Source: Candidatus Limnocylindria bacterium (GTDB lineage: Bacteria > Chloroflexota > Limnocylindria > QHBO01). From it: a stretch of DNA of 64,000 nt. The DNA lies in the NCBI GenBank assembly GCA_046715765.1, contig JBKJYH010000046.1, forward strand, positions 9-64,008. The letters are read 5' to 3'. Shown one piece after another: positions 6,720 to 62,533 of the stretch. The position numbers and the translations under genes were made by a program. Each line of letters starts with the position of its first letter. The stretch's first letter is position 1. Below the pieces are notes generated by a model. The model was not told where the DNA came from. It ran no database searches and saw only the letters and a program-made list of their open reading frames with translations.

Positions 6720-6795
6720 GCCGAGGTAGCTCAGTTGGTAGAGCACCGCCCTGAAGAGGCGGGTGTCGTCAGTTCGAATCTGACCCTCGGCACCA
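6720..6795 (+). tRNA. tRNA-Phe (GAA)
   Basis: Acceptor GCCGAGG/CCTCGGC, anticodon loop CTGAAGA, T-arm GTTCGAATC, CCA encoded. Confidence 0.9.
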
Positions 6796-6823
6796 GACTT
6801 CGTGAGCGCGGATCGGTCATCGG

Positions 6824-6899
6824 GCGGAAGTGGCTCAGTTGGTAGAGCATCACCTTGCCAAGGTGAGGGTCGCGGGTTCGAGTCCCGTCTTCCGCTCCA
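6824..6899 (+). tRNA. tRNA-Gly (GCC)
   Basis: Acceptor GCGGAAG/CTTCCGC, anticodon loop TTGCCAA. Close to the canonical tRNA-Gly(GCC). Confidence 0.9.
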
Positions 6900-6942
6900 T
6901 TTCTTTGCCTCGCCTGCTCTGCTAGCCTCAGGCCGGTGCCAA

Positions 6943-7017
6943 TGCCCCGTCGTCTAACTGGCAGGACAGCGGACTTTGGATCCGTGAACCGAGGTTCGAA
7001 TCCTCGCGGGGCAGCCA
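6943..7017 (+). tRNA. tRNA-Gln (TTG)
   Basis: Acceptor TGCCCCG/CGGGGCA with the U1:A72 pair typical of tRNA-Gln; anticodon stem GCGGA/TCCGT, loop CTTTGGA. Confidence 0.7.
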
Positions 7018-7032
7018 GCGCAGTTGAACCGA

Positions 7033-7107
7033 GGCGACGTGCCCGAGTGGCCCAGGGAGCGGTCTGCAAAACCGCGTACACGGGTTCGATTCCCGTCGTC
7101 GCCTCCA
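7033..7107 (+). tRNA. tRNA-Cys (GCA)
   Basis: Acceptor GGCGACG/CGTCGCC, anticodon loop CTGCAAA. Confidence 0.85.
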
Positions 7108-7116
7108 TCATTCGGC

Positions 7117-7202
7117 GCCGGAGTGGCGAAACGGCAGACGCAGCCGGCTTAAACCCGGCGGCCCGCAAGGGCGTGGGGGTTCGAGTCCCTCCTCCGGCAC
7201 CA
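7117..7202 (+). tRNA. tRNA-Leu (TAA), long variable arm
   Basis: Acceptor GCCGGAG/CTCCGGC, anticodon loop CTTAAAC, extended variable arm GGCCCGCAAGGGCGT. Confidence 0.85.
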
Positions 7203-55567: not shown

Positions 55568-55912
55568 ATGAGCCAGCGCACCGACCGCCTGGACAGTCAG
55601 ATCCAGCAGGAGCTGATGGATCTCCTGCACCGCCAGATGAAGGATCCTCGGCTCGGATTCGCGACCATCACCCGGGTCGAAACCGCCCGCGACCTTGGTC
55701 ATGCAACGGTGTGGGTCAGCGTGCTGGGCGACGTCAGCCAACGGGACGACACCATCGAGGCGCTTCGTGGTGCGGCAGGCTGGTTGCGCCGCCAGCTGGC
55801 CGAGCGACTGAGCCTGCGACACGTGCCCGAACTGCAGATCCGACATGACGATTCCATCGAGTCCGGCGATCGGGTATTGCGCATCCTGCGCGAACTGGAG
55901 GAACCCGAATGA
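55568..55912 (+). CDS. rbfA: ribosome-binding factor A
   Basis: KH-like fold sequence (RVETARDLGHATVWVSVLGD). Confidence 0.9.
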   Translation: MSQRTDRLDSQIQQELMDLLHRQMKDPRLGFATITRVETARDLGHATVWVSVLGDVSQRDDTIEALRGAAGWLRRQLAERLSLRHVPELQIRHDDSIESGDRVLRILRELEEPE

Positions 55913-56886
55913 GGCAGGTTGCCGACGCACTCCGCTCGGCACAGCGGGTGACCGCGTTCTGCCACGAGAACCCCGATGCCGATACGCTCGGCGCCGCGAT
56001 CGCGATCTCGATCATCGCCGAGCGGTTGGGCAAGCCTGCGGAAGTCGTGAGCGGCGACATTCCACCACCGTTTCTGGCGTCATTGCCGCGCATCGATCGC
56101 GTGCGCCGCGCCCCGGAACTGGAGCCGGACCTGGCGGTTGTCCTGGACGCGGGTGACCTGTCCCGCATCGGGCTCCCGTATCGCGCCAACGCGGACTGGC
56201 TGGCTCGCGCCACGCTGGTGAACATCGATCACCACGTCAGCAATCCGGGCTATGGCTCGATCGTCTGGATTGACCCGGCGGCGGCGGCCACCTGCGAGAT
56301 GGTGGCGCTGCTCCTGCCCGAAGTCGGCATCCAGCTCGACGCCGAGTTGGCGACCGCCCTACTGGCGGGGATCGTGCAGGACACGCACACCTTTGCCCAT
56401 CCCAACGCCACGCCCCGCACCCTGCGGGTGACTGCCGAACTGGTGGAGGCCGGCGCCAACCTGGCGGCTGCCAATCGCGCAATCTACGCCGACAAGCCGT
56501 TCACGACGCTGGCCCTGTGGGGCCAGATGCTGGGTGGCGTCTCGCAACTGGCCGGCGGGCGGATCGTCCACGCCTCGATGACCCTGGCGATGCTCAAGAG
56601 CGCTGGCGAGCAGCCGTCGGCCGCCGAGGGGTTCGTCGACCTGCTCGGGATCACCCGCCTGGCCGACCTGAACGTGCTGTTCAAGGAGGTCGGGCCCGCC
56701 GAGACCCGGGTAAGCCTGCGGACCAGCGCGCGCGCTGACGCGGTGGCGGTGGCCGCAGAATTCGGGGGTGGCGGACACTCCCGCGCTTCGGGCTGCACCG
56801 TGGCCGAGTCGATCGACCGCGCCAGGGAGCTGGTCCTGGCAGCCTGCGAACGTGAACTGGCGCGCTCCGATGCTCGGAGTCATTAA
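55909..56886 (+). CDS. nrnA: DHH/DHHA1 family phosphoesterase (NrnA-like oligoribonuclease / pAp phosphatase)
   Basis: HENPDADTLG, DHH motif (NIDHHVSN), GGGH DHHA1 motif. Confidence 0.8.
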   Translation: MRQVADALRSAQRVTAFCHENPDADTLGAAIAISIIAERLGKPAEVVSGDIPPPFLASLPRIDRVRRAPELEPDLAVVLDAGDLSRIGLPYRANADWLARATLVNIDHHVSNPGYGSIVWIDPAAAATCEMVALLLPEVGIQLDAELATALLAGIVQDTHTFAHPNATPRTLRVTAELVEAGANLAAANRAIYADKPFTTLALWGQMLGGVSQLAGGRIVHASMTLAMLKSAGEQPSAAEGFVDLLGITRLADLNVLFKEVGPAETRVSLRTSARADAVAVAAEFGGGGHSRASGCTVAESIDRARELVLAACERELARSDARSH

Positions 56887-57760: not shown

Positions 57761-58695
57761 CCAGTCGAGTCGGTCGGCTGTCGTCCATCCCGCAGGTGGG
57801 GCCGGCGGTAGTGACGATGGGGGTCTTCGACGGCGTGCACCTGGGGCATCGTCGCCTCCTCGAGGCCACCCGTGAGGCGGCGCGGCGACTGCGAGTCGCG
57901 AGCGTCGCCCTGGTCTTCGATCCACACCCGGACCAGGTCCTGCATCCCGGAACCGTCGTGCCGCGCCTGGCACCGCTCGGCGAGAACCTGCGCCGGATCC
58001 GCGCGGCCGGGGTTGCTCACGCCGTGCCGATCCGCTTCGACGAAGGACTGCGGAGCATGTCGGCGGAGGAGTTCATCGCCGGGATGGCCCCCCGGATCCA
58101 GTTGCGGGGACTGGTGATGACTCCCGCCAGCGCCTTTGGGCGCGGAAGGGGTGGCACCCCGGCGCGGATGCGCGAACTCGGAGAGGCAGCTGAGTTCGAG
58201 GTGATCGAGGTCGAGCCGATGGTCATCGATGGGCAACCCGTCTCGTCCTCGCTCCTGCGGGTAGCCCTTGCATCCGGCGACATCAGCCGCCTGAGGCGAA
58301 GCGGTGGAATCCCATACCTGGAGGGGACGGTGGTCCACGGCGACGGTCGGGGGCGGACGCTCGGCTTCCCGACCGCCAACTTGGCCTTCGATTACGCGGC
58401 GCTCCTGCCGCCGTACGGCGTGTGGGTGGCACGCGCCCGGATCGTGACGGGCGCTTCGGCGCTGGATCGGCCGGCCGTGGTCAGCATCGGGACCCGGCCG
58501 ACCTTCCACTCCGGAGGGCGGGTGGTGGTCGAGGCTCACCTGCTGGACGGTCCCCTCGACCTCTACGGAACACGCCTCGGCGTGGAGTTGGTCGAGTTTC
58601 TGCGCGAAGAGCGAACGTTCGGCTCCCCAGCCGAGTTGGTGACCCAGATGCGCCAGGACGTGGAAATGGGACGCGCTGCACTGGAGCGTGCCTGA
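57757..58695 (+). CDS. ribF: bifunctional riboflavin kinase / FAD synthetase
   Basis: [10 protein letters not shown] nucleotidyltransferase motif; C-terminal riboflavin kinase ([11 protein letters not shown]). GTGA overlap with truB. Confidence 0.9.
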
Positions 58696-58762
58696 GCCTG
58701 GGCCACGCTGGAGTGGGCCGTCTGGTACCATCGCGGCGACACGAAAGGGAATGGAGGAATAC

Positions 58763-59032
58763 GTGGCGCTCGCCAAGGACGCGAAGAGCGCGACCGTCGA
58801 GGAGTACGCAACTCACGACGGCGACACCGGATCCCCAGAGGTGCAGATCGCGCTCTTGACCGAGCGGATCACATCCCTGACGGACCACTTGCGCAACTTT
58901 CCCAACGACAACCACTCTCGCCGCGGCCTGCTCAAGTTGGTTGGCCAGCGCCGCCGTCTGCTCGCCTACCTGGTCCGGACCGATATCGACCGCTATCGAA
59001 CGGTCATCGGTCGACTGGGCCTGCGCCGCTGA
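58763..59032 (+). CDS. rpsO: 30S ribosomal protein S15
   Basis: ..[23 protein letters not shown]..; 89-aa form from GTG 58763 with GGAGG RBS (alternative ATG 58751). Confidence 0.85.
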
Positions 59033-59054
59033 GACGGATTCACCACTCAGACTT

Positions 59055-59076
59055 CGGACGACGTTCGTCGTCCGCC
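59055..59076 (+). promoter_or_regulatory. stable hairpin in the rpsO-pnp intergenic leader (putative RNase III processing site / rpsO terminator)
   Basis: GGACGAC-gttc-GTCGTCC perfect stem immediately after the rpsO stop, with no U-tract. Confidence 0.4.
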
Positions 59077-59167
59077 ATCCATCTCTGCGGCCTGCGCGCC
59101 GCGCTTGCCGATGCCGGAGTGACATCACGACGCATCCGCTGAGCGCCTGGCAGACCAGACCCGCCGC

Positions 59168-61813
59168 ATGACACACACGGAGGAACCTGTGGCAATCAAG
59201 GTAGAGGCCGAAATCGGCGGTAAGCCATTCTCGTTCGAGGCTGGCAAACTGGCCGAGCAGGCCGATGGAGCAGTCCTGGTGCGCTACGGCGACACCGTCC
59301 TGCTCGCCACCGCGGTCAGCGCGGACCCGCGCGAGGGGATCGACTTCTTCCCCCTGACCGTGGACTACGAGGAGCGCATGTACGCCGCGGGCAAGATCCC
59401 CGGCGGCTTCATCAAGCGCGAGTCGCGCCCGTCGGAGGCGGCCATCCTGGCAATGCGCCTGACCGACCGGCCGATTCGCCCGCTCTTCCCCAAGGGCTAC
59501 AAGAACGACGTCCAGATCGTGCTCACCGTGCTGTCGGCCGACCAGGAGAACGACCCCGATATCCTCGCCATCAACGGTGCCTCTGCGGCTTTGACCGTGA
59601 GCAGTATCCCGTTCGAAGGTCCAGTCGGCGCGGTGCGGGTCGGCTACATCGATGGCGCGTTTGTCACCAATCCGACGAACACCCAGCTCGACGAGAGCCA
59701 GCTCGACCTGGTGGTCGCCGGGACGCGGCAGGCAGTGATGATGGTCGAGGCCGGCGCCAAGATCCTGCCCGAGACGTTGATGGCCGACGCGATTGCCTAT
59801 GGCCACGCCGAGCTCCAGCACAGCATCGACCTCCAGCTCAAGTTGGCGGCCGGCGCCGGCAAGGCCAAGCGCCTGCCGTTCCTCGGCCCCAAGGCCGATT
59901 CGGTCGTCAAGCTTGGTGCGGCGCTGGCCGGCGGCAAGGCCGAGTTCGTGGTCTTCGACGTCGAGACGACCGCCTTGAAGCCGGAGAACGGCTACATCGT
60001 GGATATCGCCGCCCTGCGCGTGAAGGATGGCAAGGTCGTCGACCGGTTCGAGTCGATGGTCAACCCGGGCCGCTCGATCATCGGGCACCAGGTTCACGGC
60101 CTGTCAGACGCCGACGTGGCCGACGCGCCGACTGCGGCCGAGGTGCTGCCCCGCTTCGCGAAGTGGGTCGGCGATGCCGCGCTCGTGGCGCACAACATCT
60201 CGTTCGACCTGCCCTTCCTGCTGCGGCACATGCCCAACGACGAGAAGTGGGCACCCGGCGCGGTCTTCGACACCCTGGAGCTGGCGTATCAGCTGTACCC
60301 CGATGCGGGAAGCTACAAGCTGGGCGACCTGATTCGGTTCGTGTTCGATCGCGACCACGCCGCGGCGCACCGGGCCATGCCCGATACGCAGGCCACCGCC
60401 GACCTGTTCATTGACCTGACCGAAGGGCTCTCGGCGCGACTCGACGCCGTCCGCAAGGACATCGCCGACGAAGTGCGCCGGGCGCGCAACGACTACAACC
60501 GCTCAGCGCAGGGCGATCAACTCGAGGACGTGCGACGCCGGCATGGGATCGGCGCCGCGCTGATGGACGTGCTGACCAAGACGACCGTCCGCGAGTTGGT
60601 GCTGTCCGAGGGGATCCGGATCGACGGTCGCGACCTGACCACGGTCCGCCCGATCTCGGTTGAGGTCGGGATTCTGCCTCGGACGCACGGCTCGGGACTC
60701 TTCACCCGCGGCCAGACCCAGGCGCTCTCGATCGCCACGCTCGGTCCGGGCAGCGACGTGCAGCGGCTCGACACCATCTCGCCCGAGACGGAGAAGCGCT
60801 ACCTCCACCACTACAACTTCCCGCCGTACTCGGTCGGCGAGGCACGCCCGATGCGCGGCCCCGGCCGCCGCGAGATTGGCCACGGCGCACTGGCCGAGCG
60901 GGCGCTGCTGCCGGTGCTGCCGAGCGTCGAGGAGTTCCCGTACACCATCCGGGTGGTCAGCGAGGTCGTCTCGTCCAACGGATCGACCAGCATGGCCAGC
61001 ACCTGCGGCAGCACGCTGGCGCTGATGGATGCGGGCGTGCCGATCAAGGCACCGGTCGCCGGCGCGGCGATGGGCCTGATCACCGATCCGGCCAGTGGAC
61101 GCCACGCGGTCCTCACCGACATCACTGGCAAGGAAGACGCCTACGGTGACATGGACTTCAAGGTCGCCGGCACCGCGGAAGGCGTGACCGCCCTCCAGAT
61201 GGACATCAAGGTTCAGGGCATCACCATCGAGGTGATGCGCGACGCGCTGGAGCAGGCCAGGGTGGCCCGCCTCCACATTCTGGGCAAGATGACCGAGGTG
61301 ATCAGCGCGAGTCGGAGCGACCTCAGTCCGTTCGCACCACGGATCACGACCATCAAGATCCCGGTCGACAAGATCCGCGATGTCATCGGTGCCGGCGGGA
61401 AGGTGATCCGCCAGATCACGGCCGAGACCGGAACCCAGATCAATGTCGAGGACGATGGCACGATCCAGATCGCCGCGACCAGTGGCGAGGCCGCCCAGAA
61501 GGCGATCCGCTGGATCGAGGGCCTGACCAAGGATGTCGAAGTCGGCAAGGAATACCTCGGCAAGGTCACGCGAATCATGAATTTTGGGGCCTTCGTCGAG
61601 ATCCTTCCCGGCAAAGAGGGGCTGGTCCACATCAGCCAGTTGGCCGACTTCCGGGTTGCCCGGGTCGAGGACGTGGTCTCCATCGGCGATGAGCTGATGG
61701 TGATCGTGACCGAGATCGACCGCATGGGCCGCGTCAACCTGAGCCGCCGCGCGGCAATGGAGCGCCACATGGCCAAGGCCGGAAGCGGCAGCGGCGGCGG
61801 CGAGCAGTCCTAG
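59168..61813 (+). CDS. pnp: polynucleotide phosphorylase with an inserted DnaQ-like DEDDh 3'-5' exonuclease domain (about aa 258-420)
   Basis: Two RNase PH domains, KH and S1 domains in a single 881-aa ORF. Exo I FDVETT, Exo [13 protein letters not shown] and Exo III HRAMPD motifs sit in the linker. Start may be GTG 59189 (RBS GGAGGA). Confidence 0.85.
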
Positions 61814-61861: not shown

Positions 61862-62533
61862 ATGGGCAGCGAGGCGCTCCTGGCGCAGATCGCGGACGAG
61901 GTCCGTGGCTGCACTCGCTGCGCCCTCGCCAGAGGGCGAACGAAGACGGTCCCCGGCGAGGGGAACGTCCTGAGTGACGTCCTCCTCGTTGGCGAGGGAC
62001 CCGGAGCGCGCGAGGATGCCACGGGCCGGCCGTTCGTCGGTCCGGCCGGCGAGCTGCTGACCGAGCTCCTGCAGGCGATCGGCTGGCGGCGCGGGGACGT
62101 CTTCATCACCAACGTGGTCAAGTGCCGGCCGCCGGGCAATCGCGACCCGGAGCCGATCGAGATCAGCGCGTGTGGCGGCTACCTCGATCAGCAGGAGCGC
62201 GCGCTCGACCCGGCTGTCGTGGTCACCCTCGGGCGCCACTCACTGCAGCGCTACCTCCCCGGTGCCCGGATCGGGGCCGTCCACGGCCGCATGCGTCGCT
62301 CGTACACCGGCCAGCACGTGTTCCCGATGTACCATCCAGCAGCGGCGCTGCACCAGGCCTCGCTGCGCGAGACGCTGTTCCGCGACATCCGTGGCCTGCC
62401 GGCGGCGCTGCTGGATGCGCGTCAGGCGCTCGCTGACGGGCGAACGGCCGCGATCCAGGTTGAGGAGGCTGCGATGGTCGGGGTGACCGAGCTTGCGCAT
62501 GCCGACGACGCCGAACAGATGACTCTCTTCTAG
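61862..62533 (+). CDS. udg: uracil-DNA glycosylase, family 4
   Basis: GEGPGAREDATGRPFVGPAG motif and the Fe-S Cys pattern (C..C...C). Confidence 0.85.
   Translation: MGSEALLAQIADEVRGCTRCALARGRTKTVPGEGNVLSDVLLVGEGPGAREDATGRPFVGPAGELLTELLQAIGWRRGDVFITNVVKCRPPGNRDPEPIEISACGGYLDQQERALDPAVVVTLGRHSLQRYLPGARIGAVHGRMRRSYTGQHVFPMYHPAAALHQASLRETLFRDIRGLPAALLDARQALADGRTAAIQVEEAAMVGVTELAHADDAEQMTLF

Follow-up and report, generated by a model that had tools for sequence, protein, structure and literature searches.

What does a polynucleotide phosphorylase (PNPase) gain from a second exonuclease built into its own polypeptide, and on what would that second enzyme act? PNPase is usually presented with one domain plan, from bacteria to human mitochondria: two RNase PH-like domains (PH1 and PH2) joined by a helical linker, followed by KH and S1 domains. 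We analyzed a 64,000-nucleotide (nt) stretch of DNA from Candidatus Limnocylindria bacterium (assembly GCA_046715765.1, contig JBKJYH010000046.1, positions 9 to 64,008; here called the window), in which the pnp open reading frame (ORF; 59168..61813 including the stop codon, 881 amino acids [aa]) encodes PH1, a helical linker split by a DEDDh-type 3'-5' exonuclease domain, PH2, KH, and S1. All genes and domains given with coordinates below lie on the plus strand. Judging from the sequence comparisons, we put at roughly 55% the probability that the product is a bifunctional 3'-5' exonuclease, a housekeeping PNPase with an ancient DEDDh insert in its linker that most likely acts on RNA 3' ends.

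A DEDDh exonuclease domain interrupts an otherwise canonical PNPase

By its equivalog score, its domain content, and its PH2 motifs, the pnp product is a PNPase. It scored 978.2 bits against the NCBIfam PNPase equivalog NF008805 (cutoff, 471) and 976.3 bits against the PNPase model TIGR03591 (cutoff, 525), each match being split in two by the insert. The score against TIGR02696 (guanosine pentaphosphate synthetase I/actinobacterial PNPase), 722 bits, fell below the cutoff of 1106.75. Pfam detected two copies each of RNase_PH and RNase_PH_C, KH_1, and S1, plus RNase_T (PF00929). PH1 (59222..59809; RNase_PH at aa 19-148, RNase_PH_C at aa 151-214) aligned with residues ∼21-234 of solved PNPases. 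PH2 (60638..61327, approximately aa 491-720), delimited by motif positions and by alignment to the same structures, holds the phosphorolytic active site and is the most conserved region of the protein, with 127 of 230 positions invariant in the family. The PNPase catalytic motifs are intact here: RREIGHG (aa 567-573), SNGSTSMAS (603-611), and GDMDFKVAG (660-668) all aligned to solved PNPases. From what is known of E. coli PNPase, we take RREIGHG to belong to the phosphorolytic active site, NGS-S/T-SMA to form the phosphate site, and GDMDFK to form the metal site. The KH (61346..61519, aa 727-784; KH_1, E = 6.9e-12) and S1 (61535..61750, aa 790-861; E = 5.9e-17) domains follow.

The inserted domain (59936..60427, aa 257-420) is a member of the DEDDh superfamily, as indicated by a full-domain profile match, the catalytic pentad, and an RNase H-like alpha/beta fold; we assign it to the subgroup of PolC, DinG, and epsilon. 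RNase_T matched aa 261-414 over profile positions 1-164 of 164 (E = 1.6e-24; 87.8 bits versus a cutoff of 24). The motifs are Exo I, FDVETT (59954..59971, aa 263-268; catalytic D264 and E266); Exo II, AHNISFD (60188..60208, aa 341-347; catalytic D347); and Exo III, HRAMPD (60368..60385, aa 401-406; H401 and D406), whose H-x4-D spacing is the signature of the DEDDh subtype. Among NCBIfam DEDD exonuclease models, PRK07883, PolC-exo, and DinG-exo matched the insert at E values of 1e-34 to 1e-42, and a sequence search of the PDB returned the Thermotoga maritima PolC exonuclease domain (2p1j, E = 2.3e-19). The insert also passed the dnaq domain model TIGR00573 (77.8 bits versus 71.5). Models of epsilon proper were failed (TIGR01406, 83.5 versus 222.7 bits; NF004316, 72.9 versus 196 bits); the epsilon C-terminal region is absent from the insert, and the domain is embedded in PNPase rather than being a stand-alone protein of ∼240 aa. 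Models of PolC-type DNA polymerase III were likewise failed (NF001688, 123 versus 873 bits; TIGR01405, 118 versus 1043 bits), the exonuclease segment alone matching. No Orn or RNase T model was found among the 25 best of 29 NCBIfam matches. These DEDDh exoribonucleases (Orn/REXO2 and RNase T), which work as homodimers, are not the closest subgroup; the insert resembles instead the monomeric exonuclease domains associated with polymerases.

Alignments to solved PNPases locate the insertion within the helical linker. These proteins matched aa ∼13-231 and then ∼457/464-863, with their own linker (∼235-310) skipped; the linker region thus measures ∼237 residues here versus ∼75 in solved PNPases, a net excess of ∼165 aa, and the insert divides the linker so that ∼30 residues stand before it and ∼43 after. 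The N-terminal linker piece spans 59810..59935 (aa 215-256) and the C-terminal piece 60428..60637 (aa 421-490). The PNPase helical-domain profile (PF03726) gave a weak match at aa 464-489 (profile positions 56-81, E = 7e-4, below the cutoff).

An earlier analysis of the same DNA from its letters alone (the sequence-only reading) had proposed most of this layout: a single continuous 881-aa ORF carrying an extra domain of about 170 aa, a complete DnaQ-type exonuclease with all three Exo motifs intact, placed between PH1 and the remainder of the linker at 59939-60428. The ORF list, the Pfam search, and the alignments bear this out, with the extra length revised to ∼165 aa; the proposed span corresponds to aa 258-420 and matches the domain limits. 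Canonical PNPase sequence resumes after the insert, as had been stated, with GIRIDGR at residue 482 and a second stretch at 508. The catalytic numbering D263/E265 given there was one too low and is corrected here to D264 and E266.

The N terminus is less certain. The 881-aa ORF had no exact-sequence match because the same protein as deposited in NCBI (P0121, 874 aa) starts 7 codons later than the ATG at 59168, at 59189. Given this start and the annotated lengths of 860-915 aa in relatives, the true pnp start codon is uncertain.

Structure prediction suggests that the DEDDh fold sits rigidly between linker helices

In the AlphaFold2 (AF2) model of the whole protein as a monomer (mean predicted local distance difference test score [pLDDT], 75; predicted template modeling score [pTM], 0.70), confidence was high over aa 257-490 (pLDDT 85-95). 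Helices 202-230 and 243-254 lead into a beta-alpha-beta DEDD fold (259-418), which is followed by helices 421-438, 445-459, and 463-481 of the C-terminal linker piece (pLDDT ∼92-95). Modeled alone, the insert reached a pLDDT of 93.5 and a pTM of 0.90. It is thus predicted to adopt a canonical DEDDh fold and to be held by linker helices on both sides. Just two residues separate the last DEDD helix from helix 421-438 in the model, a spacing that suggests that the domain is rigidly integrated with the linker helices rather than flexibly tethered. Foldseek aligned the PNPase core with solved PNPases at TM scores of up to 0.87 (target normalized; E = 1e-47 to 1e-61), and no comparable nuclease insert in the helical linker was found in the solved PNPases matched by Foldseek or by sequence.

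The fusion is conserved across the class Limnocylindria

A scan of species-representative genomes yielded at least 549 confirmed relatives. The best 80, all of which cover both insert junctions, are metagenome-assembled genomes (MAGs) of Limnocylindria/Chloroflexota from many groups, built with short- and long-read assemblers and including Illumina assemblies; about 70 of these 80 encode the whole protein in a single frame. In full-length searches, over 240 clusters (90% identity) shared the architecture PF01138, PF03725, PF00929, PF00013, PF00575; P0121 is among them. An exhaustive representative search added a third lineage, Candidatus Limnocylindrus, with the same layout and 39% identity over the insert region. 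No PNPase-DEDD match assignable outside Limnocylindria was found among the top candidates checked in the representative library, which carries no taxonomy. The taxonomic spread of the insert, a matter raised by the sequence-only reading, is therefore class-wide in Limnocylindria, with the domain fused in hundreds of relatives.

This distribution bears on whether an assembly chimera or a missed frameshift might have joined a dnaQ-like gene to fragments of pnp. Some relatives do appear as split genes of 150-450 aa, as such an artifact would predict, but these splits are confined to frameshift-rich long-read assemblies that also break the neighboring infB, rbfA, truB, and ribF by frameshift. Some 70 independent genomes, Illumina assemblies included, read in a single frame across both junctions, so the two-separate-genes alternative, which the sequence-only reading had linked to a frameshift or stop, is not upheld. 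Composition and GC content at third codon positions (GC3) were uniform across the pnp gene, with no shift in either, and no flanking repeats were found at the insert junctions. A chance match is excluded by the E values together with conservation in hundreds of relatives. These data confirm that the fusion is real; an assembly artifact is excluded, its probability being negligible.

Gene order identifies the host gene. In the window, pnp stands in the series dxr, rseP, nusA, infB, DHH, truB, ribF, rpsO, pnp, udg, rnj, the canonical pnp position. The fusion gene is therefore the single, syntenic housekeeping pnp, and the in-frame insertion is ancient and fixed across the class. PNPases of bacteria, organelles, and humans (including the solved E. 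coli [3cdi/3gcm], Caulobacter crescentus [4am3], and Streptomyces antibioticus [1e3h] enzymes) share with it the PH1-linker-PH2-KH-S1 order, the catalytic motifs, and the position after rpsO; those solved or characterized differ in having a linker without a nuclease domain, where here a DEDDh fold of ∼165 aa splits the linker. A full-text literature search, with subscription-only papers outside its reach, came upon no account of a DEDD domain embedded in PNPase, in agreement with the sequence-only reading, which knew of none in characterized PNPases. The fusion is assembled from familiar parts, and its sequences are public, with the insert lacking an informative name. Many full-length members (P0124, P0137, P0140, and others) are named "DNA polymerase III epsilon subunit family exonuclease" by JGI. 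This name, drawn from the insert, is a systematic misannotation, since the protein fails the criteria for epsilon proper; the NCBI name, "polyribonucleotide nucleotidyltransferase," is incomplete. A whole class of environmentally abundant soil and freshwater Chloroflexota thus departs from a supposedly universal PNPase plan, evidently under selection.

Several side observations concern the database record. Fragments shorter than 460 aa (150-450 aa) had suggested a split gene in relatives; this was rejected, as the fragments trace to frameshift-rich long-read assemblies and full-length proteins were recovered with the whole-protein query. The frameshifted assemblies, in which pnp and its neighbors are both affected, are long-read (MFD/ERZ250395xx) entries (L001-L003, L044, L047, L059, L065, L066, L076, and L079) and give rise to many spurious short "exonuclease" database proteins. 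Limnocylindria-type pnp-DEDD genes, ∼70-85% identical to the window protein, also occur in MAGs labeled as unrelated phyla: L024, L040, L050, L052, L063 (labeled Steroidobacteraceae), L083 (Binatia), P0219 (Zixibacteria), and P0003 (Solirubrobacterales). Misbinned or mislabeled contigs are a more likely explanation for these than horizontal transfer. MAG SMAG_U3892 (DATBIK01) carries two different fusion genes on two contigs (L017 and L032; 78% and 75% identical to the query), which suggests that the bin mixes strains or species, or that one copy is a paralog.

The catalytic residues of the insert are invariant

The DEDDh pentad (D264, E266, D347, H401, and D406) was invariant in all 62 full-length fusion proteins compared, as were T267 and T268 of Exo I and R402 and P405 of Exo III. 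It was also invariant in a 105-sequence alignment (A3) that includes free-standing DEDD proteins, and it is kept in the Limnocylindrus lineage, where Exo III reads HRAGSD. Between clades, identity was 47% in the insert, 39% in the linker helices, and 67-75% in the PH domains, with the N-terminal linker piece the least conserved segment. Nei-Gojobori ratios of nonsynonymous to synonymous substitution (dN/dS), whose absolute values a strong GC3 bias inflates, leaving the comparison between regions alone meaningful, were 0.21 (clade A) and 0.31 (clade B) for the insert; PH1/PH2 gave 0.18-0.26 and the linker pieces 0.35-0.71. On these measures the insert is under purifying selection comparable to that on the catalytic PH domains. 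Both catalytic centers keep their defining residues, and the DEDDh domain is apparently active.

The same conservation bears on whether the insert might be catalytically silent, a structural or regulatory module (for example, a gate on the side pore for nucleoside diphosphates [NDPs] and phosphate, or a docking platform) that is DEDD-like in fold only. Such a role would suit the apparently rigid connection to the linker helices in the model, and the helical domain is known to influence PNPase activity and to line the NDP/phosphate pore (PMC2723993). Pseudo-nucleases, though, normally lose their acidic residues, whereas here none of the five catalytic residues varies, either among lineages whose inserts share only 39-47% identity or in free-standing homologs, and the purifying selection on the insert is on a par with that on the catalytic PH domains. 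Because the pentad is invariant, we consider a silent module decidedly unlikely.

The insert may place hydrolytic sites on the distal face of the PNPase ring

The helical linker is the least understood part of PNPase. Published structural work places the helical domain on the opposite face of the torus from S1/KH, where it forms part of a pore beside the central channel that reaches the active site and may govern the traffic of NDPs and phosphate (Nurmohamed 2009, PMC2723993). If, as we assume, the trimeric ring still forms with the insert in place, this description would give each trimer three Mg2+-dependent, hydrolytic DEDDh sites at its distal face, near the pores. The enzyme would then combine two chemistries, phosphorolysis to NDPs in the channel and hydrolysis to nucleoside monophosphates at the DEDDh sites. 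Its substrates would most likely be RNA 3' ends, which the KH/S1/PH machine would keep locally concentrated; they may be short remnants of PNPase digestion, or 3' ends and tails that PNPase handles poorly or meets under limiting phosphate. PNPase leaves a short oligonucleotide product (PMC11572968), and RNA fragments of 2-5 nt require dedicated nanoRNases (PMC10570053). Together with the distal-face placement, these two properties make a bifunctional exonuclease the best-supported reading.

A more speculative elaboration, which we regard as doubtful, is an exosome-like machine with two chemistries: RNA threaded through the KH/S1 cap would be phosphorolyzed in the ring, and the last oligonucleotide, or a 3' end that has stalled, would be passed through the helical-domain pore to the covalently attached DEDDh site on the distal face. 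Were this true, a single polypeptide would degrade RNA fully to mononucleotides, and Limnocylindria PNPase would become the first in bacteria to channel RNA intramolecularly between phosphorolytic and hydrolytic exonuclease sites.

Pairings of a PH ring with a DEDD nuclease offer a functional analogy. In the eukaryotic-type arrangement, the exosome ring is inactive and Rrp6 is located close to its cap side. The Limnocylindria domain would differ in lying on the face opposite KH/S1 of a ring that is presumably active. The other example is the Caulobacter degradosome, in which PNPase is partnered with RNase D (PMC4245959). Both partnerships are noncovalent and of the DEDDy/RNase D type, whereas the Limnocylindria fusion is covalent and of the DEDDh type. 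If the domain acts on RNA, the fusion would be a natural covalent counterpart of exosome Rrp6 and Caulobacter RNase D, and would offer a single-protein system for studying phosphorolytic/hydrolytic coupling, the role of the helical-domain pore, and the clearance of end products.

Three points weigh against this reading, and against remnant cleanup in particular: the closest characterized relatives of the insert, the behavior of B. subtilis DinG, and an NrnA-like gene nearby. The first two favor a DNA exonuclease with a role on DNA or R-loops. PNPases of B. subtilis and mycobacteria show DNA activities that depend on Mn2+ and are linked to repair, which would suit such a role, and a family-4 uracil-DNA glycosylase gene lies immediately downstream of pnp here and in relatives. 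The best sequence and structure matches of the insert (PolC-exo, epsilon, DinG, ExoX, and the PRK07883 DEDD exonuclease family) are DNA-acting, as are, in the main, its closest characterized relatives. DinG of B. subtilis and S. aureus resembles the fusion in joining a DEDDh domain to another nucleic acid enzyme, although there the domain is fused N terminally to a helicase and here it is inserted within an exoribonuclease. B. subtilis DinG prefers single-stranded DNA (ssDNA) and RNA-DNA hybrids and did not cleave linear single-stranded RNA (ssRNA) with Mg2+, while S. aureus DinG is reported to cleave it (PMC12525004). A DNA or R-loop role is a serious rival, if a less probable one, because the nearest characterized relatives are mostly DNA-acting and B. 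subtilis DinG spares linear ssRNA. If it is correct, the fusion would physically link PNPase to genome maintenance. As to the third point, the operon holds an NrnA-like DHH/DHHA1 gene (55909-56886, 325 aa, between infB/rbfA and truB), so a nanoRNase may already exist, which weakens the remnant cleanup version of the proposal. The match of this protein to the NrnA nanoRNase model was full length at 88 bits, versus a cutoff of 350.

The sequence-only reading had likened the fusion to PolC. The parallel holds as a concept, an exonuclease domain lying inside a catalytic polypeptide in both cases, and PolC-exo is the nearest relative; the host there is a DNA polymerase and here a template-independent phosphorylase. 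PolC-like proofreading, in which the DEDDh domain would edit the synthesis of PNPase itself by trimming heteropolymeric 3' tails or misadded nucleotides, could draw on this kinship, and PNPase is able to polymerize from NDPs (PMC8284320). Since PNPase synthesis is template independent, there is nothing to proofread, and the 3' end bound in the PNPase active site is buried far inside the channel; we therefore think editing improbable. A bifunctional exonuclease acting on RNA 3' ends remains our preferred reading.

Genomic neighborhood of pnp

The uracil-DNA glycosylase gene (61862-62533) directly follows pnp and precedes rnj (RNase J), which starts at 62530 and runs off the end of the window; the order pnp-udg-rnj recurs in relative L002. 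It is an odd DNA repair gene within an RNA metabolism cluster, and its placement may be incidental. Upstream, the rpsO ORF (58688-59032, 114 aa) shares 8 nt with the end of ribF. The S15 profile covers aa 34-113 alone, and the real rpsO start is probably downstream of the mechanical ORF start.

The spacer between rpsO and pnp (59033-59167) contains a hairpin (59055-59074) with a perfect, GC-rich 8-bp stem and a UUCG tetraloop, GGACGACG-UUCG-CGUCGUCC. Folding of the whole spacer (146 nt) gave −60.2 kcal/mol (z = −3.0 versus shuffles). The hairpin may be an rpsO terminator or, as in E. coli, a pnp leader/autoregulatory hairpin. An Rfam scan of the window detected tRNAs alone, with no match near pnp; among them are a single gene at 45-118 and five closely packed genes at 6720-7199.
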